From the NCBI GenBank assembly GCA_965249005.1, contig CBDFLD010000011.1:8303-72302 (forward strand): a stretch of DNA of 64,000 bases, read 5' to 3'. The notes under the pieces were generated by a model, which saw nothing but the letters and a program-made list of their open reading frames with translations, ran no database searches and was not told the DNA's origin. This document shows positions 34,761 through 54,841 of this stretch, piece by piece. Source of the DNA: Acidobacteriota bacterium (lineage in GTDB: Bacteria; Acidobacteriota; UBA6911). A program made the translations under genes and the position numbers. The first letter of the stretch is position 1. Each line of letters starts with the position of its first letter.

Positions 34761-35641
34761 GCAACCTCCTCCACCGGAATCCAGAGAATGCCGCTTCGGC
34801 CCACATGAACATCTTTGAAATTGGGCCGAATGTAGTATTCATCGACGTTCGAAAGATCCTGTAGGTACTTCTGGTGAAGTCTGGAAATCTCTTTGCGCGT
34901 TTCCATCTCCAGTGAAAGCAAGGGCTCTTCGGTCACCTCCTGGAGACGCACGGGATAATCCGGAACCGATGGAATGTTTGGGTCGCCCAATTCCGTCTCC
35001 AGAAATAGGTTCGTGAGTCTTTCAGAGACCTGATGCATACGACTCTTCCAATGAGAGCTTGACTTGACGGCTCCGAAATCCTCCGCTGGCCCCTTCTGGT
35101 AACATTCCCTCAACCGCTCCATCCTTCGAAGGACCACTTCCCGAATGGAGTCCATCTCCTTTTTGAAAGAATCGGCAAGTAGCTCTACACAACGAGAACC
35201 GAATTCATCCTGAGACTCCCCGGTGTGGGAATAGGTGTTCAGTGTAAAGTTGCGATAAATGCGCACGTGGTGGTGCCGCATGAGGTAGGTAAGGAACAGG
35301 GTTTCCATTCTCGCTATCGTATCCACGCTCAGAAACTCCGGGAGTGGAGTCCTCGTCGCGGTATCCGGGACTCCCTGGACGATGCCCAAGGGCTCTTCGT
35401 CGGAGACCATATCGGGCGTCCACAACAGATCCGTCTCGAGGGGGAGAAGCTCGACAGACTTGCAGATACTGACGGTCCCGCGAAACCCCGATCTCACGTC
35501 GGCAAAGTCGATCTTCGTTTCGAAGTATACGCGCGGGCTGTAGTGATCTGCCCGCTCGCCCGGACGGGGCTGCCGATGAAACTGTTCAACCGAATCTATG
35601 TCTCGTTGAAAATATGCCTTGGAAACAAAGGGCATGCACAC
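34757..35641 (-). CDS. Hypothetical protein (no family recognised), translationally coupled to mnmA
   Basis: 294-aa ORF with coding-like composition. Its stop overlaps the mnmA start by 4 nt. No TM segment or signal peptide noticed. Confidence 0.55.
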   Translation of the reverse strand: MCMPFVSKAYFQRDIDSVEQFHRQPRPGERADHYSPRVYFETKIDFADVRSGFRGTVSICKSVELLPLETDLLWTPDMVSDEEPLGIVQGVPDTATRTPLPEFLSVDTIARMETLFLTYLMRHHHVRIYRNFTLNTYSHTGESQDEFGSRCVELLADSFKKEMDSIREVVLRRMERLRECYQKGPAEDFGAVKSSSHWKSRMHQVSERLTNLFLETELGDPNIPSVPDYPVRLQEVTEEPLLSLEMETRKEISRLHQKYLQDLSNVDEYYIRPNFKDVHVGRSGILWIPVEEVA

Positions 35642-35894: not shown

Positions 35895-36542
35895 CTAATG
35901 CACCGTGACGGGACAGCTCTTTTCCGTCATGGCGTTGAAGATCTCCTTGAATTCCTGCCGCCCGTAAAAAAGCCGGGACTTGACCGTTCCCAGCGGCACA
36001 TCCAGGATCTGAGAAATCTCTTGAATCGTATTCCCTTCCAGATCGTGGAGCCGCACGACAACCCCTTGCTTACGGGACATGCGCAGAAAGGCCCGTTCGA
36101 TGAGCTCGCGTAGCTCCCCGAGCGTGGCATACTCGAGCGGATCGTTGTCCGGGTTCTTGTCCACGGGAATCTGCCGGGCCGACTCCTCTTCCAGCTCGAC
36201 GAACAACTTTTGCTTCCCCCGGCGCAGGATCCCCAAACACACGTTGACGGTGATTCTACTGATCCAGGTTGATATTTTCGACTCGCCTCGGAAACGCGGA
36301 AGTCCCCGGTAAATGTTGAGCAAGGTTTCCTGGAGTGCATCCTCTGCCGAGGCATGCTCCCCCAAGATTCGAAAGGCCGTGTTGAAGATTTTCCGGTAGT
36401 ATTTGGCAACCAGCTCATCGTAGGTGTCAACGCCGCGAACCGTGCCCTCTACGTTGGTACCGGCAGGCCTGGCTAGGATACATGCGTTCGGGCTTGCAGT
36501 GTGGCTTGTGATCATGCTCTCCCCAGGAAACGCCATCGCCAA
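35895..36542 (-). CDS. ECF-type RNA polymerase sigma factor (sigma-70 family, regions 2 and 4)
   Basis: YYRKIFNTAFRILGEHASAEDALQETLLNIYRGLPRFRGESKISTWISRITVNVCL (region 2) ... LEGNTIQEISQILDVPLGTVKSRLFYGRQEF (region 4). The start codon is uncertain. Confidence 0.85.
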   Translation of the reverse strand: MAMAFPGESMITSHTASPNACILARPAGTNVEGTVRGVDTYDELVAKYYRKIFNTAFRILGEHASAEDALQETLLNIYRGLPRFRGESKISTWISRITVNVCLGILRRGKQKLFVELEEESARQIPVDKNPDNDPLEYATLGELRELIERAFLRMSRKQGVVVRLHDLEGNTIQEISQILDVPLGTVKSRLFYGRQEFKEIFNAMTEKSCPVTVH

Positions 36543-37016
36543 TCCGATGGGCTTTTCGTCATTGTTCGCCTACGGACCAGCAACGATCCCTTGCAAGTGC
36601 TGCCCGTGGGCGCCCCTTCCCCTTCTTACACGTCTTGTTACACTGCAAACGGCGTGCCAGATATTAGCTTCGGAACGTTATGATCTGCAAATTATTGATT
36701 ATATTGTAGTTATAATGTTGCCGGGAATAAATGCAGAACACGATTCTGCTGAGTCGGCAGATCCGAACTGTCCAACAATTGGACAATCCCCAATGATTCT
36801 TTCTAAAGGACTGAAGAAGCGGTGTTTAGAAGTGTAAAGACCCAGGATAGTGGGATGCCAGCATTTCCTACAGTGATTGCCCAGAAGGGACAGTTGAAAA
36901 GTTCGGGACTGAACAAAAAGAGGACTGAACAAAAAGGGACATCTCCTCCAAGTTTCCAAGCTTCCTGGAATGGATCCCGCGAAAAACCGTGGCGGGGGGA
37001 GAGGGACGTCCCCGAT

Positions 37017-38428
37017 TCAGCGCTGGGACATCCGTTTTAGCTTTTCGATCAACGCCTGCCGGCTGATCCCCAAATTTCGCGCCATCCGGGACTTGTTGTT
37101 TTTGAACTGGCGCATGGCGTTGCCGATCATTTCCTCTTCCAATCGTTGGATTGCAACTTTCATGTTACCGTCCGGCCCCCTCGGCGACCCGGCAAGCTGG
37201 CGAATGTGGTCCGAAAGCAATTCTGGTCCGAGGGGCTTTCCCGGTTCGGCCAGCAGGACCATGCGCTCGATCTCGTTTTGCAGCTCTCGCACGTTGCCAG
37301 GCCAGGCGTAGGATTCCATAAAGCCTTGGGTCTTCTCTAGTAAGGGACCAACTCTTCGGTTCAACTTCGAACAAAACTGTGAGAGAAAGAACTCGGCCAG
37401 CGGAGCAATATCTCCTGTACGCTCGCGCAGCGGGGGAATCGTGAGTGAAAAGACATTGATGCGAAAAAAGAGATCTTGTCGAAAGCGTCCGGCTTCAACT
37501 TCGGCTTTCAGGTCCCGGTTCGTTGAGGCGAGAATCCGCACGTCGACCTGCCTGGGTTGATGATAGCCGAGCGGCATGATTTCACTTTCCTGAATCACCC
37601 GCAAGAGCTTGACCTGAAGCTCGGCCGGCGCCTCTCCGATCTCATCCAGGAATATCGTGCCCCCATGTGCCATTTCGAAAAATCCCTTTTTTCCTGCATG
37701 GCGCCCGTGAACGCACCCTTCGCGTGTCCGAAGAACTCACTTTCAACAAGGTCGCGGGGAATGGCTCCGCAGTTCACCGGGATGAAGATCTGACCTGGAC
37801 GATTGCTATCATCGTGGATATAGCGGGCGATCAGTTCCTTTCCCGTTCCGGTCTCCCCTTGAATGAGGACGGTGGTCTCAGTCGCCTTGACCCGGTCCAA
37901 GAGCCGCAAGATGTTCTCCATCTCCGGGCTGCCGTAGACGATGTTTCTGGGCCGGACTTCCTTTTCGACTTCCCGCCGCAGAATGATATTCTCGGTCAGC
38001 AGGCGGTCATGCGCCTGCTTTAGCTCCGCGGCCAACCGCTCGTTCTCGCGCTGCAGTTCCTTCTTCTCGAGGGCCTCCCGCACCGCCATCCGCAGATCCT
38101 CGGGCTCCCACGGCTTGGTGATGTACTTGTGCACCTTGCCCATATTGATTGCAGCAATCAGGTCGTCGACCTCCGTAAATCCTGTGAGCACGATCCGGAC
38201 CAGATTGGGATACTCCCTCTGCGACAGCTCCAGGAACTCGATCCCGGTCATATTGGGCATCTTCTGATCCGTGATGATGACATCAACGGTGGTGCGCTTC
38301 AGGATATCGAGCGCTTCCTCGCCCGATTGAGCCGTAGACACTTCGTAGTGGTCCACGAAAGTCCTCTGTAGCTTCTGCAGGTTAGCCATCTCATCGTCGA
38401 CCAGCAGGAGTTGGTATTGCTTCGTCAT
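37017..38428 (-). pseudogene. Sigma-54-dependent response regulator (REC + AAA+ + HTH) interrupted by a 1-nt frameshift in an A6 run
   Basis: ORF 37595-38428 carries REC and AAA+ up to [14 protein letters not shown]. ORF 37017-37673 continues [16 protein letters not shown]...HTH in another frame. One extra A in the run at 37687-37692 (T6 on plus) restores [29 protein letters not shown]. Confidence 0.85.
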
Positions 38429-40566
38429 TTGCCGGGTCCTTCCTGGACGACGGGTAGCCGAACCGTGAAGACACTCCCTTTCTCGGCTGTGCTGTTCACA
38501 TGAATCTTACCCTGATGCTGCTCGATGATCCCGTAGCTGATACTCAATCCGAGCCCGGTCCCGTGTCCTACAGGCTTGGTGGTAAAGAAGGGCTCGAAGA
38601 TACGCCTGAGGCTCTCCTTCTGAATTCCGCTGCCACTGTCTTCGATTTCAATCTCTACCGTGCCGTTCGCCGATCGAGTTCGAATCCAGACTTCGCCGTT
38701 TCCCTCGATCGCTTGAAAAGCGTTCAAGAGCAGATTCATGAACACTTGGCCCAGCTTTCCCGAATATCCTTGAATCGGGGGAATGGCCCCATAGTTCCGA
38801 TGAACCTCAATACGATTCTTGTATTGATTCCGCAGCAAGTTGAGGGACATGTCCAGGGATGCGTGCAGATCTATATCCGTCAGAGCATCAGCATCCATTC
38901 GAGAAAAAGTCCGCAGATCGGACACGATCGTGTTGATGCGTTCCGCACCTTCCGTAAAGTTGTCGATCAAGGTTGCGAGGTCTTCGCGAATGAAATCATA
39001 GTTCGCCCGTTCCTTCATCCCATCCAGCCGAGCTTTGTCTTCCGCCGATAGGCTGGGCAAAGAGTCAAACGCCTCGACCAGCGACTGCAGCTTCTGGCTG
39101 TAGTCGGCCAAGAAACCAGTATTCCCATAGATGAAGTTCAGGGGGTTCTTTATTTCGTGCGCAATTCCGGCTACCAACTGCCCCAGAGAAGCCATCTTTT
39201 CCGACTGCACCAACTGATCCTGCGTACTTTGAAGTTCGAGATATGCTTTCTTGAGCGCATCGTGGGATTCTTCCAGCTCCCGGGTGCGTACGCCCACCAT
39301 TTGTTCCAGGTTCTTGTTCAGCACCTGGAGCTGCTGCTCCCGTTCAGACAGAGACCGCGCCATGTCGTTGAAGGTGGATCCCAGAATCCCTACTTCATCG
39401 GAAGTGCTGATTCGAACTCGCTCCCGGAGATTCCCCTGGGCAATTGTACGGGCCGTTCGAATGAGATTGTTCAGCGGCACCGTGATTCCTTGTGCAATCG
39501 CGTAAGTGAACACGCTCACCAGACAGGCGGTCAACAAGGTTACGGCGATGAGCCACCATTTCATGTTCTCGATCGGCTTGAAAATATCTTCCGCATCGAT
39601 TCCAACCCCTACAATCCAGCCGAAACTGTCTTCGATAGGATGCAACCCGGACATTTTCGCGTTCCCCGCCGGAAAGTCATAGGCAAGGCTCGATTCACCG
39701 GCCAGAATCGCGTTGTGCAGACTTGTCAGACCGTGATCTTCGACGAGTTTACTTTGGTAGAGGTCCTGCCCGTCGTCTTCCAAAAAGGGGACATCCCCCG
39801 GGTAGCCGCGATTGGCTCGATACTTATGGGCGATGATTGTATTGGCATCTTTGCCAAACATGAAAGCGTACCCCGTGCGGAGGTCGAGCTCCCGCAAATC
39901 GGCTTCCACGCGGTCCAGGATATTCTGGAAATAGACCCAATTGACAACGGAGATCCAGACCCCCACGATTTCCATTGTTTCCGGGTTCCTCACCGGCTCC
40001 GAATAGGCTACATTGAATTGGTGACTGCGATCCTGCTGCTCGTAGTCGTAGAGAGTTGCAACGATGCTCGACTGGTACCAGTCGCTTTGAGAAGAGTGGC
40101 CTTTGATGGAATGATCAAACAGGCTGCGTTCCACACCGAATTCGGAGAGATCCGCGCCGAGCGTTGCGGATATGGTCTCCGCTGAAAACGGCGCGCCCAA
40201 GCGATCCATGTTGTTGATCGCAACGATCCTCCCCTTGGGGTCTCCGATGAGCAGCACGTCGTAGACTTCGTGGTCAAAACAATAGTTATTCAGCAGTCGG
40301 GTCATTCCCTGGCGGTTCCGCTCGGAAACAACCGGGTAGAAGAGCGAGAAAGTCGTGGCCATGGAATGAACCTCTTCTCTCTGCTCTCCCAGGACAAGAT
40401 CGATCTTGTCGGAGGTATCCTGCGCCATCTTCTCGAGCGACAGCTTGATCCGGTCTTCGGTAATCTGCTTACTCCCAATAAAATAGGAGAAAACGGAGAT
40501 CCCCACCAGCGGAATCAAGGAAAGGCTCATGGTCAAGGCGAACAGCTTCTCTTTCAGACTTCTCAT
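38425..40566 (-). CDS. Sensor histidine kinase (periplasmic Cache-like domain, HAMP, HisKA, HATPase_c)
   Basis: N-terminal TM, ~300-aa extracytoplasmic domain, second TM, HAMP, H-box AHEIKNPLNFIYGNTGFL, and G-box GHGTGLGLSISYGII. Its stop overlaps the RR start (ATGA). Confidence 0.9.
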   Translation of the reverse strand: MRSLKEKLFALTMSLSLIPLVGISVFSYFIGSKQITEDRIKLSLEKMAQDTSDKIDLVLGEQREEVHSMATTFSLFYPVVSERNRQGMTRLLNNYCFDHEVYDVLLIGDPKGRIVAINNMDRLGAPFSAETISATLGADLSEFGVERSLFDHSIKGHSSQSDWYQSSIVATLYDYEQQDRSHQFNVAYSEPVRNPETMEIVGVWISVVNWVYFQNILDRVEADLRELDLRTGYAFMFGKDANTIIAHKYRANRGYPGDVPFLEDDGQDLYQSKLVEDHGLTSLHNAILAGESSLAYDFPAGNAKMSGLHPIEDSFGWIVGVGIDAEDIFKPIENMKWWLIAVTLLTACLVSVFTYAIAQGITVPLNNLIRTARTIAQGNLRERVRISTSDEVGILGSTFNDMARSLSEREQQLQVLNKNLEQMVGVRTRELEESHDALKKAYLELQSTQDQLVQSEKMASLGQLVAGIAHEIKNPLNFIYGNTGFLADYSQKLQSLVEAFDSLPSLSAEDKARLDGMKERANYDFIREDLATLIDNFTEGAERINTIVSDLRTFSRMDADALTDIDLHASLDMSLNLLRNQYKNRIEVHRNYGAIPPIQGYSGKLGQVFMNLLLNAFQAIEGNGEVWIRTRSANGTVEIEIEDSGSGIQKESLRRIFEPFFTTKPVGHGTGLGLSISYGIIEQHQGKIHVNSTAEKGSVFTVRLPVVQEGPGK

Positions 40567-41008
40567 CTGAACTCGCCTCGCTGGACTGCAATGGGCTTCT
40601 CCCCGATCAGCAAGCGACCACCACCGTGGTTGCAGACCGGACCAGGCTGAGCTCGACCCTGTTTTGATGGTTTCTTGGACATTTGCACTCTTTGACTGTC
40701 AAATCGCTTTACATTCTTGTTCATCCAATTGGTTGTCGCAAGAACAACTTTCGTGACGAACCACCCCACCCCAATCCCTAGGGACCCTATAGGCTAGCCC
40801 TCCTTTCTCCCCAGTTTAGGCAAGAGGGAAAAATTTAATTAAGCGCGCAATCGAGCGGCGTCGATAAATTAGATGCATATAGCCCAAACGATGTGTCTGA
40901 GAGACTTCTCGAAGAAACGAAAAAAAGAGGTGCTTGCCTATCTTTAGAACGCGTCCCCTCCCTCGCTAAACAGCGCTTCTCTACGAAAGAAGAAAGGTTG
41001 AATCCCAA

Positions 41009-41707
41009 ATGAAAAGAATCGTCCATTTTGTCTTACCGCTAGCTATCGTGATGTTTTTTGCAATCCCCGCGACCGCCCAGCACCAGTACCGGTTGGAGTT
41101 CTTTGGCGCAGGCAATTTTGCCATGGACAAGGACTTCGAGATCACTTTTCCGCAGTCCACCGTGGCCATGACGGGAAACCACGACTTTCTACCCGGAGCG
41201 GCGGGCGGCGTCCGATTGGGAGTCGACGGAACCGGGCACTGGGGCCAGGACCTCAGTTACAGCTTCGGAAACAACGCCAGCCGGATCATCAACGAGACCA
41301 ACGGCGCGACCTTCGCGTTTACCAATCGAATCCATCAAATCTCCTATAACGCGCTCTGGTATCCGACGGGGCTAGGGGATCGAAAGTGGACACCATTTCT
41401 GACCGCCGGCTTTGGCGCCACGCTGTACCGTCTAGGCCCACAAGCAATCAATGAGGCGTTGGATCCCAATCAGGCAGGGCTCGGCCGAGTACAAAGCGAC
41501 AACATATTCGCTTTCAACGCTGGTGCGGGCGTTCAATTCCGGATCAACAAGGTCTATGGGTTTCGAGTCGATTTTCGCGACTTTATGACGCGAGCCGTTC
41601 GATACGGGCTGCCCAATCAATCAGAGGACCCCAACGCTACGGTGTTCCCGGTATCGGGAATCTTTCATCAATTTCAGATCTCTTTCGCCTTTGTCTATTA
41701 TTTCTGA
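41009..41707 (+). CDS. Outer-membrane beta-barrel protein (OMP_b-brl-like)
   Basis: Signal peptide MKRIVHFVLPLAIVMFFAIPATAQ, alternating beta-strand pattern, C-terminus ...FQISFAFVYYF ending in an aromatic residue. Confidence 0.75.
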   Translation: MKRIVHFVLPLAIVMFFAIPATAQHQYRLEFFGAGNFAMDKDFEITFPQSTVAMTGNHDFLPGAAGGVRLGVDGTGHWGQDLSYSFGNNASRIINETNGATFAFTNRIHQISYNALWYPTGLGDRKWTPFLTAGFGATLYRLGPQAINEALDPNQAGLGRVQSDNIFAFNAGAGVQFRINKVYGFRVDFRDFMTRAVRYGLPNQSEDPNATVFPVSGIFHQFQISFAFVYYF

Positions 41708-41791
41708 CACCGGCAGAAAGAATCTCCCGGGTTGTGATCTCGGACACTGTCCGCTCGCCACCTATGCTTTAGGATTTTGCAGAGGCAACGC

Positions 41792-44700
41792 ATGGCCACC
41801 AATCGACTAAATGGAAAGCGCGTGTTCGCTTCCCTGTTCTATTCCGTGTTTGTTCGGGTCTCGGCAACCGTGTCGGCAACATCGACGACTCCGATCGCTG
41901 CCGTAATCGCTTGCATCCTGCTCGGTCCCCTCATGGGAGTGGGGGGAGCGGGTTTGGCGCAATCGGGAGACCCGGATGGGACGGAGCTTCACTTTCCCCG
42001 TTTCGTCTCGGCCTCCGTGGAAAACACCAGTGGCGTTGCGATCTTCAATCCGAATTTCTCGCCAGCGATCGCGGACCTCTTCTTGGTCGATACGGCTGGA
42101 AACCTGGTGGCGGACGTGTTTCCGAATCCGCTCACACTCACGGTTCCGGGGCGTGGGCAGATCGCGCGGACAGCGTCGGATCTGTATAGTTTTCCGACCT
42201 TCGACGCGTCTCTGCTGATTATCAGCGCCACGCCCGGCTTGGTTGCCTACTATCAGACCTTTGATCAGCAGGGAACGTTCATGGACGGAGCTGAGCCTCC
42301 CCGAGCAGGGATGGAGATAATCTTTCCCGTCGTTCCCGGGTTTGAGCAAGGCGTCTCGGAAATCAACGTACTCAATCCCAGCCCGCGTTCCACCGGGGTG
42401 GAGTTGAGTCTTTGGGGTTTGGACGGTCAACGACGGGCGCAGTCGAACATCAGCGTGCAGGCTTACGGCAACTATCGAAGCCTCGCCCACGACGCGTTTC
42501 CCGGGGTGGAGGACTTTACCGGAATATCGCACATCACGGCAAAGGGCAAGTCGGCGAATCTCTTCGCACAGGCGCAGCAAATCTCCGGCACAAGTTTGTT
42601 TCTCGGCTTTTCGTCACTGGCGCCGCCGGGCGGATTCGTCGACCTTGCAGCACTCAACGCTGTCAGTCTGACCGAACTATCCAACGGGGGTGTCCTACCC
42701 TACTTTCGAACCGGAGCGACGGATACGTCCTTTGTTTCCGTCGCCAATTCCGACTCTTCCTCCGGTGACGTGACCGTCACCTTCATTGGAAACGATGGCG
42801 CCAACCTGGGTGCGAGCCAGTTTAGTGTTCCGGCAAACGGAGGTTATCGGGCTTCGATCGAATCCTCGCTTGGCGCCCCGGCCAACGGGAGCGACGTCGA
42901 AGGGTGGATTCTCGTACAGGCGTCGGGCCGGATCGCGGCGGCCGTGATCTATGGCAATCGAGAGGCAGCCTCACTGGCCGCTCTGCTAATGCAGCCAGCG
43001 CCGCAGTTTGCCTTTCTCTTCTCTCAGGCTGTCCAAAGTGCAGGAATGTTCACGGAAATTTCGCTGGCAAACCCCAATCCACAAGACGCTTACGTCACCG
43101 TGTACGTCGTCGATCCCCTGGCAGTCACACAGGCGATCGGCCAGGTGATCGTGGGTCCCAACCGGCGGGTTTCGAAAACGCTAATCGAGTTTTTGCCAGA
43201 AGTGTCCTCCCTGAGCGGAGGATACGTCTACCTCAATTCGACGCTGCCCCTATTTGCAACCGCGACACTCGGAACCTCCAGCGGGATGACCCTGGCAAAC
43301 TTCTCTCCGAGCCGTGTGAGTGAGTCCTTCGTACCCGCTTCGCTGGAGACTTTCGCGGTGACGGGAACGATCTTTGTCAACGGTAAGCCGGCGGAGGGAT
43401 TCCAGATTGCTCTCTCGGGACCGACCGCAAGCACTACCAGCAGCCGGGCCGACGGAACCTATGCCTTCAGCGGCTTGGCGTCGGGAAGATACTCGATGGC
43501 GGTGGACCAGTTCGGGTTTCAGTTTGCGCCCAGCGAGGTCAACTTCGACATAAGATTCGCCAGCAGAAGGCAGGATTTCCAGGGATTCACCTCCGATGAC
43601 GCCATCGTGGTGGCTCCCGCATCCATTGCCGTCAACAGCGCCGATACGAAGGTGAGCGTTCACGGCCGGGACTTCAACCAATCGTCGGAAGTGTTTTTGG
43701 GGACGATCCGGCTGGCGACAACTTTCATCGATTCGAACCAGCTCGAGGCAACGGTTCCAGGGTTTGCGCTCTCCTCGCCGGTCCAGTTCGATGTGCGAGT
43801 CGTCACCAACCCTAACGGACCCGATCGCCGGGTCAGCGGTTCGTATGCAGTGGTCGTCTTTAGCGATCGACCTCTGCTATCCGGGGTGATCACGCCCGGC
43901 GACATCGTGCAGGGAAGCGCCGGCGCAACCCTGACGATAAGGGGCATCGGTTTCCTTCAGGGAGCCAGGGTGAAAATCAACGGAAGCTCCGACGGCATCA
44001 ACGTCACTCTGGTGGACGACAGTCAGCTCACGGTCTCCGTCCCGGCAATCTACTTTGTAGAAGGTGGAATCTTCCCGGTAACGGTGGAGAACCCCTGGCC
44101 CGCGAACGTGGAGTCAAACATCCAACTGTTGACCGTCTTCTATCCAGCGCCGGGAATCGAACAGATTTCTCCCGCGTCGGTTCCGGCCAAGCTGGAGCCG
44201 GGCGCAGGTCCACTGTCGGTCGATGTCTTCGGATATGGGTTTCGTCGCGGTGCGGTCGTGTTGTTCAATGGCCAGCCGGTCCCGACCACTTACTGCGAAG
44301 TCGATTCGTTTTGTCTCACGGTCCACCTTACCGCACAGATCCCTGCCGATTCGCTGCGCCAGTCCGGGTTCGGACAGATCAGCGTCAGAAACCCAAATCC
44401 TTCGCTCGCGGCATCCGAGGTGGCGAACCTGCTCATTCAAGGTCTTCAACCGACTATCACATCCGTGCTACCTGGTTCGGCGACCCTGCTGGACAACCCC
44501 TCGCTCTATAGCATGCCAATCATAATCAACGGAACCAACCTAGGTTCTCAGACGGGGGTGAAAGTATACGAGTCCGGGACTCCGCCGCCGACCGGTTTCA
44601 CCCGCGCTGGTGTCTCCGATATCAGCAGCACCCAACTCGTGGTGTCCCTGACGGTCGAATTCCCTGATGATATCGGTGAGTGGATCGTCGAAATCTCGAA

Positions 44701-45031
44701 CCCCCAGCCCGGGGGCGGTCGATCCCAGCCAGTCAGTTTTTTTATCACGCAGGGGAGTTTTGTCGCCAATCCGTTCCTGGTCTCCCTGAGTCCGCAGACT
44801 GTCGCGGCAGCAGGCCCAGCTTTCACCTTGATAGTCAACGGGACGAACTTCAAGGGCGGCGCTCAAATCAATTTCAATACGGCGGCTCTTGCTACGAGCT
44901 TCATCAGCGACCGGCAATTGAGAGCCGAGGTGCCGGCCTCGATGATCCAATCGGTAGGCAGAATCCCGATTAGCGTGACAAACCCCGACAATGGCGGGAC
45001 TTCCAACCGAATCTTTCTGGATATCCGGTGA
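41792..45031 (+). CDS. Giant secreted/surface protein: four N-terminal repeat modules + CarboxypepD_reg-like domain + multiple IPT/TIG-like Ig repeats
   Basis: Hydrophobic signal/anchor PIAAVIACILLGPLMGVGGAGLA. Modules begin at LHFPRFVSAS (nt 41987). VTGTIFVNGKPAEGFQIALSG...DGTYAFSGLASGRYSMAV. Repeated ~85-aa units with ...V.G.GF..G..V.FNG. ATG 41792 is preferred; the ORF track uses TTG 41777. Confidence 0.8.
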   Translation: MATNRLNGKRVFASLFYSVFVRVSATVSATSTTPIAAVIACILLGPLMGVGGAGLAQSGDPDGTELHFPRFVSASVENTSGVAIFNPNFSPAIADLFLVDTAGNLVADVFPNPLTLTVPGRGQIARTASDLYSFPTFDASLLIISATPGLVAYYQTFDQQGTFMDGAEPPRAGMEIIFPVVPGFEQGVSEINVLNPSPRSTGVELSLWGLDGQRRAQSNISVQAYGNYRSLAHDAFPGVEDFTGISHITAKGKSANLFAQAQQISGTSLFLGFSSLAPPGGFVDLAALNAVSLTELSNGGVLPYFRTGATDTSFVSVANSDSSSGDVTVTFIGNDGANLGASQFSVPANGGYRASIESSLGAPANGSDVEGWILVQASGRIAAAVIYGNREAASLAALLMQPAPQFAFLFSQAVQSAGMFTEISLANPNPQDAYVTVYVVDPLAVTQAIGQVIVGPNRRVSKTLIEFLPEVSSLSGGYVYLNSTLPLFATATLGTSSGMTLANFSPSRVSESFVPASLETFAVTGTIFVNGKPAEGFQIALSGPTASTTSSRADGTYAFSGLASGRYSMAVDQFGFQFAPSEVNFDIRFASRRQDFQGFTSDDAIVVAPASIAVNSADTKVSVHGRDFNQSSEVFLGTIRLATTFIDSNQLEATVPGFALSSPVQFDVRVVTNPNGPDRRVSGSYAVVVFSDRPLLSGVITPGDIVQGSAGATLTIRGIGFLQGARVKINGSSDGINVTLVDDSQLTVSVPAIYFVEGGIFPVTVENPWPANVESNIQLLTVFYPAPGIEQISPASVPAKLEPGAGPLSVDVFGYGFRRGAVVLFNGQPVPTTYCEVDSFCLTVHLTAQIPADSLRQSGFGQISVRNPNPSLAASEVANLLIQGLQPTITSVLPGSATLLDNPSLYSMPIIINGTNLGSQTGVKVYESGTPPPTGFTRAGVSDISSTQLVVSLTVEFPDDIGEWIVEISNPQPGGGRSQPVSFFITQGSFVANPFLVSLSPQTVAAAGPAFTLIVNGTNFKGGAQINFNTAALATSFISDRQLRAEVPASMIQSVGRIPISVTNPDNGGTSNRIFLDIR

Positions 45032-47343
45032 AGCGGAGTATTGCTGTGATGTGTAACAGGTTAGTCAGGAGACCGGGGAAGCATAGCCTCTGGTTTGTCG
45101 CGGTCTGGTTGCTCGTACCGTTCACGAGCGCCTATGCCCAGGACGACGAGATCGAACCCAACAACTCCATGGCCCAGGCAAACGGGATTTCGGCGCCCTT
45201 CACGCTTGTTCGAGCCGAAATCGACACGACTTCAGACGTAGATTTTTACCGATTCTCCGTCACAACAGGACAGAAGGTCACCATATGGGTGCAGGCCCGA
45301 TCTATCGACTCGGGTCTCACTCCTCGCTTGTCTTTGTACAACGACAGTGGAGACCTCATTGGTTACAACGATACCGAAATAAACCTGTCCACGCCGGCGT
45401 TGACCCGGGACGAACCGATTCTCTATCTGAAGTTTCCCGTCGGAGGCAACTACTTTGTCTCCGTCTCCAGTCTATCGGCGACGGGAGACTACTCGCTGCT
45501 GCTCGTTCCTCAATTCGACGGTTCCTTTGTGGGGGACGCCAACGAACCCAACGACAGTCAGGCCGCCGCTACTCCCATCTCTCTGCCGCATCAAAGCTAC
45601 GGCGCGAACTTGATCCACTTGGGAGACCTGGACTGGTATGCGTTCCAGGCTGAACAGGGCCAATCGATCAGCATTGACGTGGACGCTTTGCAGAATACGG
45701 CAAATGCTGCCTTCCCGATGATCCTCAGCGCTCGGGTAGGTTTGTTCGACGAGGCCCGGAGTCTCATTCAGTCTGCCGATATCGGACCAGATCCCGACGA
45801 CGGCTTCAGTGATGACCCCGTCTTGACCTTCGAGGTCCCTCGATCCGCCACTTACTTCATTGCGGTGACCACGAATATCGACAGCGACTTCGTCACCGCC
45901 TTCAACAACACCATCTTTCTCCAAGATCCGCTCGTCGGCAGCCGGGAAAACCTCATCGGCTACTACAAGCTGCAGGTTCGTGTTCTTCGGCGCATGCACT
46001 TTGCCCACATCGCCAACGGAGTCTATGGAGACGTTCGCTTCGCAACGAGCCTGATTCTATTGAACTTCAACAACGCCGAAGCCACGGGGTTCATCCGCTT
46101 GGTCAAACAGAACGGCACCCCAATGACGAGTTCGGCTTCGAAGGCCTGCGCTCCAGGACGCGATTGCTACTTCAGTATCCCAGCCAAGGGAGTCTTGATG
46201 GTGGAGACCAATGGCCTTGGCCCCGGGGAATCGGGATACGGAACGATCGTCACGACGAGCCCCCTGGGCGGGAGCGCGGTATTCTCCGAGTATGATGCCG
46301 CCGGAGTCCTGATCACAGAGGCAGGCGTTTCGGCCTCGACGGCCGTGGAGTTTTTTGTTGTTCCTGTGGACGTGACAGGGGACTTCAATACTGCATTGGC
46401 GATTGCCAACGCTCTGCACGACTTTCCGGCGAATCTGTTCATCAAGCTCGTGGACGGCTCGGGCGCCACCGTCGATACCCGAGATGTCATTCTGCAAGGT
46501 GGAGAGCAGACTTCCCTCTTTGTCAGCGGTCCAGGCCAGTTGTTCCCAAACATTCAGAACTTTAGAGGCAGCCTTCAGGTCTATTCGGATGTGCCCGTCG
46601 CCTCGATTGCCTTGCGCAGTTCAAACCGAACCCTGACAACTCTGGCTCCTTCCACGATCAACCTCTCCCCCGAGCCGACACAGCTTTACTTCCCTCATGT
46701 GGTCGTCGGAGGAGACACGAACTTTTATCGCTCTACCATTATCCTGACCAATCCCGGATTCTTTCCTGCGTCCGGAACGATTCGCTTCGTCCGCTCTGAC
46801 GGAACACCGATGATCGTCAACTTCGGATCGAACGCTTTGTCTGTCCACAGCTTCTCGATTACTCCGCAAGGGGTCCTATTCTTGGAATCCCTTTCCACGG
46901 GTTCGCTGGAAAGCGGTTACGCCATCGTAGAATCAGATCGAGGCCTGGGAGGCGTGATTATCTTCTCCCAGTATGACACCGTCACCGGTGCCTTGCTCAC
47001 CGAAGCGGCCGTGCCTCCGTCTCCGAAGTACGACAACTTCTGCATATTCGTACAGTCGCAAGGCGATTACTCGACGGGAATCGCGTTGGCGAACACGAGT
47101 GAGGATAGCACCGACATAGACCTGACTCTACGCTCCTCGAGCGATCCCCTGCCGATCGAGCTCGCCGATCCCTTGGAAGGCGGGGCCCACCGGGCCAAAT
47201 TGATTTCGGGCGAAGGTCAGCTCTTTCCGGAGTTTACCGGTCTGGGCACGCTCGAGATCTCATCCAGTCAGGGGATCCCCGCCGCAACGCTCCGCATCAC
47301 GGCGAAAACGATGACGGTCTTGCCGGTGGTACCCGTGCCGTAG
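45028..47343 (+). CDS. Secreted protein: two PPC (pre-peptidase C-terminal-like) domains + four repeat modules
   Basis: Signal peptide ...LWFVAVWLLVPFTSAYAQ. EPNNSMAQANGI...DVDFYRFSV and EPNDSQAAATPI...DLDWYAFQA. Modules begin at MHFAHIANG (nt 45995) and LYFPHVVVGG (nt 46684). The GTG start overlaps the preceding stop (GTGA). Confidence 0.8.
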   Translation: MKRSIAVMCNRLVRRPGKHSLWFVAVWLLVPFTSAYAQDDEIEPNNSMAQANGISAPFTLVRAEIDTTSDVDFYRFSVTTGQKVTIWVQARSIDSGLTPRLSLYNDSGDLIGYNDTEINLSTPALTRDEPILYLKFPVGGNYFVSVSSLSATGDYSLLLVPQFDGSFVGDANEPNDSQAAATPISLPHQSYGANLIHLGDLDWYAFQAEQGQSISIDVDALQNTANAAFPMILSARVGLFDEARSLIQSADIGPDPDDGFSDDPVLTFEVPRSATYFIAVTTNIDSDFVTAFNNTIFLQDPLVGSRENLIGYYKLQVRVLRRMHFAHIANGVYGDVRFATSLILLNFNNAEATGFIRLVKQNGTPMTSSASKACAPGRDCYFSIPAKGVLMVETNGLGPGESGYGTIVTTSPLGGSAVFSEYDAAGVLITEAGVSASTAVEFFVVPVDVTGDFNTALAIANALHDFPANLFIKLVDGSGATVDTRDVILQGGEQTSLFVSGPGQLFPNIQNFRGSLQVYSDVPVASIALRSSNRTLTTLAPSTINLSPEPTQLYFPHVVVGGDTNFYRSTIILTNPGFFPASGTIRFVRSDGTPMIVNFGSNALSVHSFSITPQGVLFLESLSTGSLESGYAIVESDRGLGGVIIFSQYDTVTGALLTEAAVPPSPKYDNFCIFVQSQGDYSTGIALANTSEDSTDIDLTLRSSSDPLPIELADPLEGGAHRAKLISGEGQLFPEFTGLGTLEISSSQGIPAATLRITAKTMTVLPVVPVP

Positions 47344-47510
47344 GCACGGCCTGCGGGTCGTGCGCTCACCGCTGTCCGCTTCAGGTAGTTTGCCATCCTC
47401 TAAGTGGTACCCACTATCCACCTTCCCAAAGGTGTGATCCCTGGACTGATTCTGGAGACACCACAAGCACTTCTCTGGTGAACCGGAATCGTGCAACTCG
47501 GGGTAACAGG

Positions 47511-47580
47511 AACAAGAAATGGAAAACGGGGCGAGCGGATGGCGGTACGCGCGCCGGCCGGCGCATTTCTTGTTGATTTT
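47511..47580 (+). terminator. Long composite hairpin (AACAAGAAATG ... CATTTCTTGTT enclosing GCGCCGGCCGGCGC) followed by a T-rich tract
   Basis: 11-bp outer arms at 47511-47521 and 47564-47574, an inner GC palindrome, then GATTTTG. Lies 170 nt after the stop of the 45028-47343 gene. Confidence 0.5.
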
Positions 47581-47613
47581 GTCCCAGATTTCCCGTTTAA
47601 TTAATTAGTTCAA

Positions 47614-47713
47614 CTTATCCAGAGTGGTGGAGGGACTGGCCCTGAGAAGCCACGGCAACCAGCCCACTGAGGCAAGGTGCTAATTCCTGCAGAAAGAATT
47701 TCTGGACGATGAG
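47614..47713 (+). promoter_or_regulatory. SAM-I (S-box) riboswitch aptamer
   Basis: CTTATCCAGAGTGGTGGAGGGACTGGCCCTGAGAAGCCACGGCAACCAGCCCACTGAGGCAAGGTGCTAATTCCTGCAGAAAGAATTTCTGGACGATGAG matches the S-box core (AGAG.GG.GGAGGGACTGGCCC..GAA.CC.GGCAACC...AAGGTGCTAATTCC.GCAG...GATGAG) with P1 CTTATC/GATGAG. Confidence 0.9.
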
Positions 47714-47736
47714 TTGGAGAGCCGAGCGGATCATCC

Positions 47737-47767
47737 AACCCTTTCTTTCCGGAAAGGGTTTTTTTTT
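47737..47767 (+). terminator. Intrinsic terminator of the riboswitch expression platform
   Basis: AACCCTTTC-TTTCCG-GAAAGGGTT followed by a run of T. Lies 33 nt upstream of the ATG at 47800. Confidence 0.85.
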
Positions 47768-47799: not shown

Positions 47800-49071
47800 A
47801 TGAACTATATGAAGAACCTGATTTGTAAAGAGTGTGGAGAGGCTTTCGAGGCCGAGAAACAGTTCGTGTGTAGCTCTTGCTTCGGTCCATTGGAGGTGTC
47901 CTATGACTATGCTGCTCTGTCGCGTGCAATGGGACCCGAAGACATCACAAACCGTCCGTACAATCTCTGGAGGTACAAGGAGCTTCTCCCGGTAACCGGC
48001 CCCCCGGCCACCGGGTTCCAGTCCGGATGGACCCCGCTGGTAAGGGCAGATCGCCTAGCGAAGACATGGGGGCTGGAGCAGCTCTATCTCAAGGACGATT
48101 CGGTCAACCACCCGACCCTATCCTACAAGGAGCGAGTCGTTTCAGTGGCGGTCACGCGAGCCCGGGAGCTGGGTTTCAAGACCATCGCGTGTGCGTCGAC
48201 TGGCAACCTTGCCAACTCGGTTTCGGCACACTGCGCGAGGCTCGGATTGCCTTGCTTTGTCTTCATACCCGACACGGTCGAACCGGCCAAGATCGTCGGT
48301 TCGGGAATTTACCAACCGCAAATCGTGCGTATTCGAGGAAATTATGACGACGTGAATCGGTTGTGCAGCGAGATCGGGAACGAATATGGGTGGGGATTCG
48401 TCAACGTAAATCTCCGTCCCTACTATACCGAAGGGGCCAAGACCTTTGGTTACGAAGTGGTCGAGCAGCTGAATTGGCGACTTCCCGATCATACGGTTCT
48501 GCCGACCGCGGGCGGCACCTTGCTGCCGAAGGTATCCAAGGCATACCGTGAGCTCACGGACTTGGGGTGGGCCGAGGGCAAGTCCAAGATTCATGCCGCG
48601 CAGGCAGCCGGATGTGCGCCCGTCATCCATGCATTGCACTCCGGAGCCAGTGAGATTCGACCGGTCAAGCCGGACACGATTGCCCATTCGATCGCGATCG
48701 GGAATCCTACAGATGGTCCTTACGTGCTCGATTGCGTACGAGAGAGCAATGGTTGGGGCGAAACGGCCTCGGATGAGGAAATACTTCAAGCAATCCACCT
48801 TCTGGCAGAAACCGAAGGCATTTTCGCCGAGCCTGCGGCAGGCACAACCCTGGCTGTCTGCAAAAAACTCGTCGACCAGGGACGTATAGGTCCTTCCGAG
48901 ACCGTGGTAGTCGGAATTACCGGAAACGGCTACAAAGCAACAGAGGCTGTGGCTTCCCGTCTCAATTGCTCAGTCCAGCTGTCTTCTTCCTTGAAGGATT
49001 TTCAATCCTGGCACCAGTCCCAGAGCCAAGGATCGGCGAAGCCATCAACGTTTTCTGGAGCGATACCATGA
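47800..49071 (+). CDS. Threonine-synthase-family PLP enzyme with N-terminal zinc ribbon (candidate homocysteine-forming enzyme rather than ThrC)
   Basis: CKECGEAFEAEKQFVCSSCFGPLEV zinc ribbon. PLP-lysine motif HPTLSYKERVVSV. GNLANSVSAHCARLG. Overall ThrC-like fold-type II pattern. Preceded by the SAM-I riboswitch. Confidence 0.8.
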   Translation: MNYMKNLICKECGEAFEAEKQFVCSSCFGPLEVSYDYAALSRAMGPEDITNRPYNLWRYKELLPVTGPPATGFQSGWTPLVRADRLAKTWGLEQLYLKDDSVNHPTLSYKERVVSVAVTRARELGFKTIACASTGNLANSVSAHCARLGLPCFVFIPDTVEPAKIVGSGIYQPQIVRIRGNYDDVNRLCSEIGNEYGWGFVNVNLRPYYTEGAKTFGYEVVEQLNWRLPDHTVLPTAGGTLLPKVSKAYRELTDLGWAEGKSKIHAAQAAGCAPVIHALHSGASEIRPVKPDTIAHSIAIGNPTDGPYVLDCVRESNGWGETASDEEILQAIHLLAETEGIFAEPAAGTTLAVCKKLVDQGRIGPSETVVVGITGNGYKATEAVASRLNCSVQLSSSLKDFQSWHQSQSQGSAKPSTFSGAIP

Positions 49072-50633: not shown

Positions 50634-51064
50634 TGGAATAGATTTGCACACCGGCGTCACCAGAAGATGACAGTGGTAATCTTGCCACACTAGGGGGTAA
50701 AAGGGCATGTCGGCGGTTGGGAATCCACCCCTCGGTGTGGCTATACAATCGGATTTGCTAGGGTGCTGAAGGGGACAGCTGGTGTTCCACAAAAAGCTTG
50801 CATCAGAAGCGTGGGTGATCCATTTAAACAGTAAGGGAGGCTCATGTGCGGCCTGCGATCCTCCGCTGCCCATCGAATTGCGATTGCAGCGGCAGGGGCA
50901 TTTGTTATTCTTTTTGTTTCGTTACACTTGCAGCGTTATCAAGGTAATTTCTCTTAGGACTTCCATTCAGTTGCCGATATGACCATTTGAGCCCAAACTC
51001 GGCAACGGTCCATCATTTCTCAACCCCTCGAGGGGTAGTGAACTCGAGGATAAACCGGAGTCGA

Positions 51065-51919
51065 ATGCTCAAAAAACTGAAAACCACGCTGGAAATGATA
51101 AAGATCGAGCACACGATCTTTGCACTTCCATTCGCTTTTGTAGGTGCCTTCATGGCCGCAAAGGGAATACCGGAGGCACATCACGCGGGCTGGATCATGG
51201 TGGCGATGGTCGGAGCTCGAAGTTCGGCGATGGCATTCAATCGTCTGGTAGACTCGAGATTTGACGCGCTCAATCCTCGCACATCGACGAGGGCAATCCC
51301 TCAGGGACAATTGAGCCGGTCCTTCGTTTGGGCCTTCGTGGTATCCTCCGCGTTACTGCTAGTCTTAGCGGCCTACCAGCTGAACCCCCTGGCGCTAAAA
51401 CTGAGTCCGGTAGCCCTGGGGCTCGTTTTCTTTTATTCGTTTACTAAACGGTTTACCTGGTTCTCCCACCTATTTCTTGGAACTGCTCTTTCGTGCGCCC
51501 CGATCGGCGCTTGGATCGCTATCCGCGGAGAACTAGGTTGGGAGCCGTTACTGCTTGGATTGGCCGTGGTGCTCTGGGTAGCTGGCCTGGATATCATCTA
51601 TGCCTGTCAAGACACCGAATTCGACCGGGGGGTGACTTTGCATTCGATCCCGAGCCGGTTTGGAATTCGAGTCGCACTATGGGTTTCCGGAGCCTTGCAC
51701 GCGGTGATGATAGTGCTTCTGGCTTGTCTGTTCTGGAGCAAAGGACTTTTCTTGAGCCTCGCGGGGCTGGCTCTCGTCGGGCTACTGCTGGCCTACGAAC
51801 ACACCCTCGTCAAGCCATCGGACTTGAGCCGGGTCAACCTCGCCTTCTTTACCATCAACGGTTGGATCAGCGTCCTGTTGTTCGTCTTTACCAGCATCGA
51901 CATCTTGAGGTCTAGCTGA
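51065..51919 (+). CDS. UbiA-family aromatic prenyltransferase (4-hydroxybenzoate polyprenyltransferase-related / menaquinone-type)
   Basis: [30 protein letters not shown] ... [21 protein letters not shown] (Asp-rich motif) ... YACQDTEFD. About 8-9 TM helices. ATG 51065 is preferred over the ORF-track start at 50987. Confidence 0.8.
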
Positions 51920-51921
51920 CC

Positions 51922-53658
51922 ATGGCTTCCCAAATCGGCGAACTCCTAATAAGGGAAGACTTCATCAGCCAGGAACAGCTCGATGCAGCCCTGAAGCAGC
52001 AGCGCGAGCACGGAGGCCGTCTGGGCTCCATTCTCATCAACCTCGGCTACGTCGAAGATGACAACATCACCTCTGTGCTCAGCCGCCAGTACGGCGTCCC
52101 TTCCATCAACCTCACGTACTTCGAAGTAGACGCAGAGGCCATAAAGCTGATACCGATCGAGGTCGCTCAAAAATACATGTTGGTTCCCTTGAGTCGAATC
52201 GGTAACACGCTCACGGTTGCGACCGCCGATCCGACCAATGTCTTTGCCATGGACGACATCAAGTTCATGACGGGTTTCAACGTCGAGCCGGTGGTGGCGT
52301 CAGAGAGCTCCATCCAGGAAGCGTTGGAAAAGTACTACGGGACCGCGCACTCGATCGAGCTGAAGAGGGTCTACGCGCAGTTCGCGCAGGTGGAGAAAGA
52401 TGGAAGCATCGATCTGGATCTGGACACGGAGTTCGAGACGGAAGAGGAACTCTCGGCCGACCAGCTACAGCGATCGAGCGAAGAGGCGCCTATCATCAAG
52501 CTGGTGAACCTCATCCTATCCGATTCCATCAAACGGGGTGCCAGCGATATCCATGTCGAGCCGTATGAGCGGGATCTTCGGGTCCGGTTTCGAATTGACG
52601 GGGTTCTCTACAACATGATGAATCTACCGCTGCGTCTCAAAGACGCCATGACCTCCCGCATCAAGATCATGGCAAAAATGGATATTTCGGAGAAGAGACT
52701 TCCTCAGGATGGACGCATCAAGATCCGAACAAGCTACGATTCCAGAAAGAAGGAAATCGATTGCCGTGTTTCCACGCTGCCTACCCTGTTTGGGGAGAAG
52801 GTGGTGATGCGTATCTTGGACCGGGACATCTTGCCGTTGGATATGGCCAAGCTGGGTTTCGAGGAGGAATCCTTGAAGCGTGTGGAGGAGGCCATCCTGA
52901 AGCCTTACGGAATGGTTCTGGTGACCGGACCGACGGGAAGCGGGAAGACATCCACCCTTTATGCATCACTCAACCGGCTCAACACGCCCGAGACCAATAT
53001 CATGACCGCGGAAGATCCCGTCGAGTACAATTTCCGAGGCATCAATCAGGTCCAGATCCGAGAGCAAATCGGTCTCACGTTCGCTTCCGCCCTCCGTTCT
53101 TTTCTCCGTCAGGATCCCAACATCATTCTGGTTGGAGAAATCCGGGACTTCGAGACCACCGAAATTGCGATCAAGGCCGCTCTTACAGGACACCTCGTGC
53201 TTTCTAGCGTTCATACCAACGATGCCCCATCGACCATCTCTCGTCTGCTGAACATGGGGATCGAGCCATTTCTGGTTGCCACTTCCGTGCACCTTATCTG
53301 CGCCCAGCATCTCGTGCGTACGATTTGTAACGAGTGCAAAACCGAAATAAAAACCCCGATACAAACACTTATCGATATTGGCTTTTCTCCCGATGAAGCT
53401 AAAGAGGCCCAGACATACAAGGGAGAAGGATGCCGTAACTGCAATGGGACGGGTTACAAGGGCCGTCTGGGTCTGTATGAGGTGATCGACGTTTCCGAGG
53501 AAATCCAGGAATTGATCCTTGTCGGCGCTTCTGCAAGAGAGATCAAGCGCAAGTCCGTGGAAGAGGGCATGTTGACGCTGCGCCACAGCGGACTGACAAA
53601 GATAAAAAAGGGTGTCACCACGATCGAAGAGGTCTTGCGAGAGACCGTCAAGAACTAG
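51922..53658 (+). CDS. pilB: Type IV pilus assembly ATPase PilB (GspE family with N-terminal MshEN-type domain)
   Basis: T2SSE_N-type N-terminus, GPTGSGKTSTLYA Walker A, ILVGEIRD, tetracysteine CNECK...CRNCNGTGY. Confidence 0.9.
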   Translation: MASQIGELLIREDFISQEQLDAALKQQREHGGRLGSILINLGYVEDDNITSVLSRQYGVPSINLTYFEVDAEAIKLIPIEVAQKYMLVPLSRIGNTLTVATADPTNVFAMDDIKFMTGFNVEPVVASESSIQEALEKYYGTAHSIELKRVYAQFAQVEKDGSIDLDLDTEFETEEELSADQLQRSSEEAPIIKLVNLILSDSIKRGASDIHVEPYERDLRVRFRIDGVLYNMMNLPLRLKDAMTSRIKIMAKMDISEKRLPQDGRIKIRTSYDSRKKEIDCRVSTLPTLFGEKVVMRILDRDILPLDMAKLGFEEESLKRVEEAILKPYGMVLVTGPTGSGKTSTLYASLNRLNTPETNIMTAEDPVEYNFRGINQVQIREQIGLTFASALRSFLRQDPNIILVGEIRDFETTEIAIKAALTGHLVLSSVHTNDAPSTISRLLNMGIEPFLVATSVHLICAQHLVRTICNECKTEIKTPIQTLIDIGFSPDEAKEAQTYKGEGCRNCNGTGYKGRLGLYEVIDVSEEIQELILVGASAREIKRKSVEEGMLTLRHSGLTKIKKGVTTIEEVLRETVKN

Positions 53659-53676
53659 GCGGACACAGGGTTTGCA

Positions 53677-54810: not shown

Positions 54811-54841
54811 AGGCGTTTAAGTACAAGGAAGGGAAGAAAAA

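Follow-up and report, generated by a model that had tools for sequence, protein, structure and literature searches.

The window analysed here, a stretch of 64,000 nucleotides from an Acidobacteriota contig, carries on its plus strand three co-directional open reading frames (ORFs) that fill positions 41009-47343: the gene of a small outer-membrane beta-barrel protein (OMP), followed by those of two large repeat proteins, P2 and P3 (Table 1). The cluster probably builds a non-enzymatic envelope structure. Comparison of related loci supports a conserved core made of OMP, P2 and a promoter-like motif of their own, to which P3 would have been added in one sub-lineage. Tentatively, OMP and P2, with P3 where it occurs, may form an outer-membrane-anchored, Ca-dependent and non-catalytic binding or scaffold assembly. 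The cluster combines domain types already known with one unmodelled beta-sandwich family, in an arrangement akin to envelope immunoglobulin (Ig)-repeat proteins with a separate small-barrel partner. No described system of this composition was met in Pfam, NCBIfam, the sequence and fold searches of the PDB or the literature, and literature on DUF5719, choice-of-anchor and Acidobacteria surface or secretome proteins yielded nothing relevant, so that a preliminary description of this DNA, which had called the module uncharacterised and without a described counterpart, stands on that point. What emerges is a solid uncharacterised gene cluster, not a new mechanism.

The conserved core is best seen in the related loci. 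Sixteen were fetched, corresponding to 15 distinct ones (L001 and L003 lie on one contig). In these 15 the OMP and P2 genes are direct neighbours, 17-107 nt apart, spread over at least five genomic contexts, while P3 is present in 11 of the fetched loci, absent from three and without a call in two. The P3 orthologs are 35-48% identical and stand in the same layout as in the window, with a regulator and a kinase gene on the minus strand and OMP-P2-P3 on the plus strand. The flanks of this neighbourhood are conserved too, at 65-83% identity, including a MenC-like protein (~65%), UbiA (~67%) and PilB (~82%), and synteny there weighs little on its own because it belongs to the neighbourhood of one lineage. 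Distant P2 homologs (37-44% identity) are found in other contexts, namely L032/L033, L034, L035 and the contig of database protein P0038, where the kinase/regulator pair is lacking and the flanks are unlike those of the window. A gene for a protein of 230-235 aa lies directly 5' of P2 in all of these; it encodes an OMP ortholog (46-52% identity) in L032/L033, L034 and L035, and in the P0038 contig it has no family match on record. P3 is missing from L032/L033 and L034, the contexts with downstream sequence.

A bipartite promoter-like motif accompanies OMP-P2 in every context whose DNA was readable, even those without a nearby two-component system. In the window it consists of an A-rich run, TAAGCGC (40840-40846), 13 nt and GTCGATA (40860-40866), ends ~143-145 nt 5' of the OMP start and is the only perfect (0-mismatch) copy. 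It is found once per locus and always 5' of the OMP gene in L001-L006, L008, L009 and L031; the L007 copy deviates by one letter in the -35 part (TAACCGC), and variants were recognised by eye in the unrelated contexts (TAAGAGC in L032, TAAGCCT...GCCGATA in L034 and TAAGCAC in L035). The intergenic DNA around it is otherwise not conserved. This promoter-like consensus, TAAGCNN-N13-GYCGATA, may be the dedicated promoter of the OMP-P2 unit, read by some sigma factor. The same motif was also sought at the genes of paralogous proteins in L011 and L028 that share the P3 module block described below, and was rejected there, the box TCGAATAG being only loosely similar. The leader of ~145 nt (40867-41008 and its orthologs) keeps a C-rich box (CAYCCCCC), TGAAC..GCA and a Shine-Dalgarno sequence (GGAAAGGTGA) across contexts. 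A CACC in this leader could pair with GGTG of the Shine-Dalgarno sequence; RNAalifold gave no pairs for the leader consensus and Rfam has nothing there.

OMP begins with a signal peptide (cut ATA|QH) and ends with the C-terminal aromatic signal FAFVYYF. Its score with Pfam OMP_b-brl (PF13505) is 38.9 bits against a cutoff of 28.7, and about eight strands are predicted, by manual reading of the ortholog alignment, for its ~209 mature residues. Size, family score and C-terminal signal thus resemble those of the small 8-stranded barrels (OmpA N-domain, OmpX, Opa). Unlike these, the gene is strictly paired with P2 and the loops are conserved rather than variable: across 11 orthologs (46-60% identity) the invariant residues cluster in presumed long loops, DKDF..PQ..PP..G and R.G.P..S.DP...VFP..G, which in the standard 8-strand topology, assigned manually, are predicted to be extracellular. 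Conserved loops are unusual among small barrels, and their conservation here fits a specific partner. A PDB sequence search with the OMP profile found no relative. Membership of the type IX secretion system (T9SS) was rejected, as the PorG model NF052316 gives 20.9 bits where 130 are needed, and the OMP_myx_plus model TIGR04565 is likewise far from its cutoff (30.1 against 60 bits). Type V secretion was also rejected: neither OMP nor P2 nor P3 matches Autotransporter, ShlB/POTRA or IAT_beta models, and OMP has only the ~209 residues given above. For a barrel of OmpA/OmpX size, export of P2 and P3 appears implausible and anchoring or docking possible; the latter is the economical reading because folded proteins would not fit through a barrel of this size.

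P2 is built of three regions that follow its signal peptide (Table 1). The four N-terminal modules are mutually related in profile-profile comparison (E=1e-7 to 1e-11) and match the second and fourth modules (type B) of P3 at ~1e-9, so that the P2 set is a divergent, B-like version of the P3 block. The AlphaFold2 model of residues 55-525 is a confidently predicted, all-beta and compact unit (predicted local distance difference test, pLDDT, 82.5; predicted template modelling score, pTM, 0.81), for which Foldseek against the PDB returns generic beta-sandwich matches only. The uncharacterised Pfam family DUF5719 (PF18986; cutoff 26.2 bits) is reached in three stretches by the whole protein (31.4 bits) and by the module region (38.5 bits), each stretch spanning only ~55-110 of the 319 profile positions; a few paralogs of the block match it weakly, and the P3 block and most paralogs do not. 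The C-terminal 480 aa score 237.5 bits in five stretches with NF058597 (threshold 30), match Pfam TIG at E=1.6e-19 and carry a PGGG/NGGT motif, and in these respects P2 is like the choice-of-anchor Z / IPT-TIG surface proteins. Choice-of-anchor domains, going by the family name, occur with alternative C-terminal anchors. Unlike those proteins, P2 stops right after the last repeat (...NRIFLDIR, still inside it), with no anchor signal. What, then, could hold P2 at the membrane? A lipoprotein anchor was considered for the VIAC in the signal-peptide region and rejected, as it is not kept in the orthologs. The separately encoded OMP is the only candidate anchor. P2 (~107 kDa) is acidic (isoelectric point, pI, of the mature form 4.5) and has few cysteines, with an invariant pair in TIG repeat 3.

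Strings of beta-sandwich domains are also found in the alpha-2-macroglobulin (A2M)/complement proteins with their macroglobulin (MG) domains and in the NOMO rods, which are the top Foldseek and PDB-sequence matches of the modules and the CarboxypepD_reg region. The likeness is at the level of the fold only (probability 0.1-0.8, whole-chain TM ~0.1). Membership of the A2M family was rejected, since Pfam recognises no A2M, thioester, bait or receptor-binding domain. Among PDB sequences the rod region of P2 comes closest to NOMO2, an Ig-repeat protein that acts as a spacer in the lumen of the endoplasmic reticulum (ER).

P3 joins two PPC domains to a block of four modules of alternating type, (A-B)x2. 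The PPC model (PF04151) scores 48 bits in two stretches, and no other Pfam or NCBIfam model matches P3. BLASTP among the three proteins gives P2-P3 matches of only E ~0.006-0.1, leaving the modules nearly invisible, so that profile-profile comparison was needed to reveal that module 1 is related to module 3 (E=6e-33) and module 2 to module 4 (E=3e-25). The AlphaFold2 model is again confident and all-beta (pLDDT 83.8, pTM 0.75). In Foldseek the PPC pair matches the tandem collagen-binding domain of ColG (E=2.5e-13) and single ColG/ColH domains (TM 0.76-0.86), and its ExEPN(N/D) and sDxDFY motifs align with ColH and ColG. ExEPN(D/N) and DxD supply Ca ligands in ColG. The pair therefore shares the tandem jelly-rolls and the N-terminal ExEPN(D/N) plus DxD of the clostridial s3a-s3b domains. 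Differently from ColG and ColH, P3 carries no peptidase family in Pfam or NCBIfam, so the 'pre-peptidase' context of PPC does not apply, and its PPC pair is N-terminal and followed by the 450-aa beta-sandwich block. Collagen is unlikely to be the ligand, because the organism is a soil Acidobacterium. Mature P3 has a pI of 4.3 and few cysteines. That OMP, P2 and P3 are extracytoplasmic is supported by the signal peptides on all three, by the acidity and scarcity of cysteines in P2 and P3, and by the P2 cysteine pair.

Table 1. Coordinates of the OMP-P2-P3 cluster, its parts and neighbouring features (window positions unless a locus is named).
Feature	Position	Strand	Details
Bipartite promoter-like motif TAAGCNN-N13-GYCGATA	40827-40866	+	upstream of OMP gene
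OMP gene	41009-41707	+	232 aa; small outer-membrane beta-barrel; Pfam OMP_b-brl
P2 gene	41792-45031	+	1079 aa from ATG 41792; ORF opens at TTG 41777
P2, four beta-sandwich modules	~41987-43330	+	after signal peptide; profile-profile comparison of ortholog alignments
P2, CarboxypepD_reg domain	~43358-43528	+	aa 528-584; Pfam
P2, five TIG / 'choice-of-anchor Z' repeats	~43595-45028	+	Pfam TIG, NCBIfam NF058597
P3 gene	45049-47343	+	764 aa from ATG 45049; 771 aa if GTG 45028 is used
P3, two PPC domains	~45139-45987	+	residues ~38-320, after signal peptide; Pfam PF04151, Foldseek
P3, (A-B)x2 four-module block	45991-47340	+	profile-profile comparison
Hairpin, possible operon terminator	47511-47580 (stem part 47511-47575)	+	11-bp outer stem AACAAGAAATG / CATTTCTTGTT
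Sensor histidine kinase gene	38425-40566	-	HAMP, HisKA, HATPase_c; neighbour, probably separate unit
Sigma-54 enhancer-binding response regulator gene	37017-38428	-	disrupted; overlapping ORFs 37595-38428 and 37017-37673
Sigma-54 promoter, perfect	36644-36659	-	TGGCACGCCGTTTGCA; 3' of regulator gene, 5' of ECF gene
Palindrome	36769-36785		TGTCCAATTGTTGGACA; upstream of ECF sigma gene
ECF (extracytoplasmic function) sigma gene	35895-36542	-	behind perfect sigma-54 promoter
M36 (fungalysin-type) metallopeptidase gene	869-4732	+	1287 aa; secreted, FTP propeptide; block at aa 970-1240
Loci of block proteins ending ...LFFEP	L011 5318-14287; L017 9887-14279; L028 8094-11926

The module block extends far beyond this cluster. 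An exhaustive profile search with the ~450-aa (A-B)x2 block finds at least 14,558 clusters at 50% identity (E<=1e-3), 3,410 of them at E<=1e-30, in which the block usually forms the very C-terminal end of a protein of 600-1650 aa. No model in Pfam or NCBIfam spans it, 17 block sequences scanned at E<=1 in Pfam point to no consistent family, and the names of the top matching clusters reflect only the other, N-terminal domains. Recognisable partner domains are carried by seven of the eight top matches scanned: Sortilin/BNR propellers, GH71/WbsX, a Ser/Thr kinase with TPR, NHL/TIG, Peptidase_C10 and a Vgb-lyase-type propeller. A word-indexed search adds fusions to FGE-sulfatase, RHS, PPIase, esterase, LRR, Calx-beta and plastocyanin domains. 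Secreted M36, M28 and C10 peptidases and BNR, Kelch and NHL propellers are among the fused partners, and in the Ser/Thr kinase the block lies in the C-terminal, presumably extracytoplasmic part. The same Acidobacteriota genomes also encode proteins in which the block directly follows the signal peptide and precedes a purple-acid-phosphatase/metallophosphatase with PKD, fn3 with Kelch, CarboxypepD_reg or unidentified domains. A further block-bearing protein of the window is its M36 metallopeptidase, with an A-B block at the C-terminus. PDB sequence searches with the P2 and P3 profiles return PPC, NOMO and CarboxypepD_reg only and nothing for the modules, and their Foldseek matches are limited to macroglobulin MG, transglutaminase, GH2 Ig-like, RbmA and TM1070 sandwiches. 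The fusion pattern fits a binding or retention role and argues against catalysis, and the block is a candidate to be defined as a domain family of its own. One subgroup of block proteins (681-908 aa), ending ...LFFEP, has a C-terminal domain without family match and adjoins, in three genomes, its own orthologous pair of ECF sigma and LTXXQ/Metal_resist genes.

Several details of gene layout bear on how the cluster is read. The ATG at 41792, 84 nt past the OMP stop, is the start used in the identical database protein P0015. For P3, the letters GTGA are present at 45028-45031, where a GTG start would overlap the P2 stop. The ATG at 45049 is the more likely start, with a GGAG 10 nt 5' of it and the database entry P0001 (99% identical to P3) starting at an ATG and counting 764 aa. 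Translational coupling of P2 and P3 by overlap is not established, because this start leaves a 17-nt gap; the gap is 9-16 nt in the orthologous loci. Downstream of P3, the outer stem of the hairpin encloses a GC-rich inner stem and is followed by GATTTTGT; its folding energy is no better than that of shuffled sequence (z = -0.82) and its T-tract is weak, making it possible, on weak evidence, that it is the operon terminator. A SAM-I (S-adenosylmethionine) riboswitch (RF00162, 89 bits) at 47612-47715 (+), with an intrinsic terminator hairpin at 47737-47760, delimits the P3 transcription unit at the 3' end. The gene directly 3' of it (47800-49071) encodes a threonine-synthase-like pyridoxal phosphate enzyme (NF006050, 307 bits), and its position suggests a role in methionine/SAM metabolism rather than a plain ThrC.

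Much of the preliminary description survives this analysis. The 232-aa signal-peptide protein ending in FAFVYYF, the protein of ~1080 aa some 85 nt behind it, its four modules of ~100-110 aa and its CarboxypepD_reg-like domain, and the two PPC domains of P3 followed by four modules akin to those of P2 are all borne out by the family and profile comparisons above. So is the statement that neither P2 nor P3 holds a catalytic motif, with no catalytic family in Pfam or NCBIfam, or a known sorting signal, as scans of both libraries (E<=0.01) matched no PEP-CTERM, T9SS C-terminal domain, LPXTG or autotransporter model. The proposed AlphaFold and Foldseek check was run and, as described, led from the PPC pair to ColG/ColH and from the modules to generic sandwiches only. 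The count of about six IPT/TIG repeats has to be corrected to five. The GTGA overlap and the long hairpin with T-tract exist as sequence, the latter with its 11-bp stem, but the functions ascribed to them are doubtful: the likelier ATG start speaks against coupling, and the folding energy and poor T-tract against a strong terminator. Anchoring of P2 and P3 via OMP may hold, but export through so small a barrel is implausible. Likewise, a dedicated surface or extracellular assembly agrees with three extracytoplasmic, non-enzymatic products and the OMP-P2 linkage, but P3 is no obligatory part of it, and its absence from L032/L033 and L034 disposes of OMP-P2-P3 as one obligatory module. The expected co-occurrence of modules, adjacent OMP and a Cache-kinase/sigma-54 regulator pair is found for OMP and P2 in 15 loci; the kinase/regulator pair is missing in at least four contexts.

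The two-component system next to the cluster appears to act elsewhere. The periplasmic region of the window kinase (residues 1-350) has no family match, not even to Cache at E<=5, but an ortholog in L001 (65% identical) has dCache_1 (PF02743) on record, so that the earlier name 'Cache histidine kinase' is backed by the ortholog but by no domain match in the window copy. With NF038348 (T2SS_HK) the kinase reaches 292 bits, under the cutoff of 450. The regulator gene is split by a 1-nt homopolymer deletion at 37687-37692 (A6 for the expected A7; the ortholog reads QEKKGFFEM) and intact, with 470-473 aa, in L001, L031 and the P0011 contig; the frameshift may be a homopolymer sequencing error or mark a real pseudogene. 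In this connection, L008 (1105-2806, 6805-12292) and L004 (16347-17632) hold ECF sigma, regulator, P2, P3 and PilB genes in frame-shifted pieces, likely owing to frequent indel errors of long-read assemblies. No sigma-54 promoter (TGGCAC-N5-TTGCW, up to two mismatches) lies 5' of the OMP gene at 40567-41008. The sigma-54 promoter between the regulator and ECF genes has equivalents in L004, L006 and L008. TGTCCA/TGGACA-type sites accompany those of L004 and L006, and in L007 a sigma-54 site closely follows the regulator gene. Because this conserved promoter faces the ECF gene, that gene is the likely direct target of the two-component system, and a cascade from two-component system through sigma-54 to ECF sigma is suggested. 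Two more perfect sites (TGGCAC-N5-TTGCA) stand in the window at 25565-25580 (-) and 59456-59471 (+). Beyond the ECF sigma gene lies a gene (34757-35641) whose 294-aa product matches no family and shows no transmembrane segment.

In about half of the loci, a cassette of ECF sigma, zf-HC2 anti-sigma and LTXXQ (CpxP/Spy-like) genes lies between the kinase and OMP genes, directly 5' of OMP and in the same orientation; it is missing from the window, L032, L034 and L035. The ECF sigmas near OMP-P2 units form three or more non-orthologous groups (~25-33% identity) and are absent from some contexts, for which reason a single ECF sigma as dedicated regulator of the operon was rejected. On the other side of the cluster, 50987-57842 (+) encodes a UbiA prenyltransferase, a PilB-like ATPase with MshEN, a PilT-like ATPase, PilC (T2SSF) and a PilS-like kinase, a neighbourhood kept in all P3-bearing loci whose fetched sequence reaches so far. 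No evidence was found that it serves the export of P2 or P3.

How might the products work together? All three would be exported by Sec; the barrel would insert in the outer membrane, its conserved loops docking P2, which would present a compact four-module head on a rod of the CarboxypepD_reg and five TIG domains. P2, plus P3 where present, might then form a non-catalytic assembly that binds a polymer or surface and serves as an adhesin, a matrix scaffold or a surface-layer-type structure. Ca-dependent binding would come from the PPC pair of P3, and association with the envelope or a ligand from the module blocks. Transcription would start from the TAAGCNN-N13-GYCGATA element, the kinase/regulator pair driving the ECF gene and acting on the operon at most indirectly. 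Hints of a surface layer are compositional only (pI 4.3-4.5, few cysteines and a weak Slr4 match, E=0.034). Other points weigh against the anchored assembly as a whole. P2 and P3 have no known secretion or sorting signal and could be periplasmic; the 8-strand topology of OMP is a manual prediction; the Foldseek matches of the modules are generic (probability 0.1-0.5, whole-chain TM ~0.1); the polar positions conserved in either half of the block (TEAGV, PVDxTGxFNTG, H, LRQ) could be structural or the site of some activity; and the related loci all come from metagenome-assembled genomes of uncultured Acidobacteriota.

It is conceivable, if unlikely, that P2 and P3 stay in the periplasm, held at the inner face of the outer membrane by the periplasmic turns of the barrel as a spacer, a scaffold or an envelope-stress module. 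Such a location would agree with the lack of an outer-membrane translocation signal on both proteins, with the rod's closest PDB match residing in the ER lumen, with the ECF sigma/zf-HC2/LTXXQ cassette upstream in about half of the loci and with the block-bearing Ser/Thr kinase, where the block presumably lies across the inner membrane from the cytoplasm. However, the conserved OMP residues fall in long loops that are extracellular in the standard topology as assigned manually, PPC/collagen-binding-type domains are typically those of secreted proteins, as are fusions of the block to proteases or phosphatases, the cassette is not universal, and the ECF sigmas nearby are of at least three non-orthologous groups. 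The model of the preliminary description, one three-gene module exported or anchored by OMP and controlled by the divergent Cache kinase and sigma-54 regulator, is the least supported and looks improbable. The kinase/regulator pair is indeed divergent in all P3-bearing loci reaching so far (the window, L001-L008, L031 and the P0011 contig), and TGGACA and TTGTCAA-like half-sites were seen by eye between the kinase and OMP genes in the window and L004. Nevertheless, the shared synteny extends to MenC, UbiA and PilB as the neighbourhood of one lineage, OMP-P2 occurs elsewhere without two-component system or P3, the window regulator is frameshifted, and an 8-strand barrel presumably cannot pass a folded 100-kDa protein. 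Nor were the kinase and sigma-54 regulator, as had been claimed, the only regulators nearby, given the ECF sigma gene; their control of the operon is not supported, in view of the lack of a sigma-54 promoter at OMP, the operon's own motif and the conserved sigma-54 site facing the ECF gene.

Alternatively, the cluster may be part of an exoenzyme display, a proposal that must be regarded as highly speculative. The (A-B)n block would be an unrecognised retention or docking domain of Acidobacteriota exoproteins, and OMP-P2(-P3) its outer-membrane scaffold, on which block-tagged proteases, phosphatases and glycan-active propellers dock by block-block contacts in a cellulosome-like manner, with P3 as a client or adaptor. 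The block is common to P2, P3 and many secreted enzymes of the same genomes, including the window M36 peptidase, and the P2 modules, which are of the divergent, B-like version, pack compactly in the model (pTM 0.81). Against it, block-block contact is a conjecture and the block is also found in a membrane kinase. Such an arrangement, if real, would parallel cohesin-dockerin display in a diderm and outside a cellulosome.

The Acidobacteriota, most of them uncultured, rank with the most abundant bacteria of soil, and little is known of how they retain proteins at their surface. In the OMP-P2 unit a real conserved combination of promoter, small barrel and Ig-rod protein can be told apart from incidental neighbours, which provides a testable architecture for the anchored assembly proposed here. 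Should the block prove to be a domain for retention or ligand binding, it would improve the annotation of thousands of soil exoproteins and may reveal a route for exoenzyme display.

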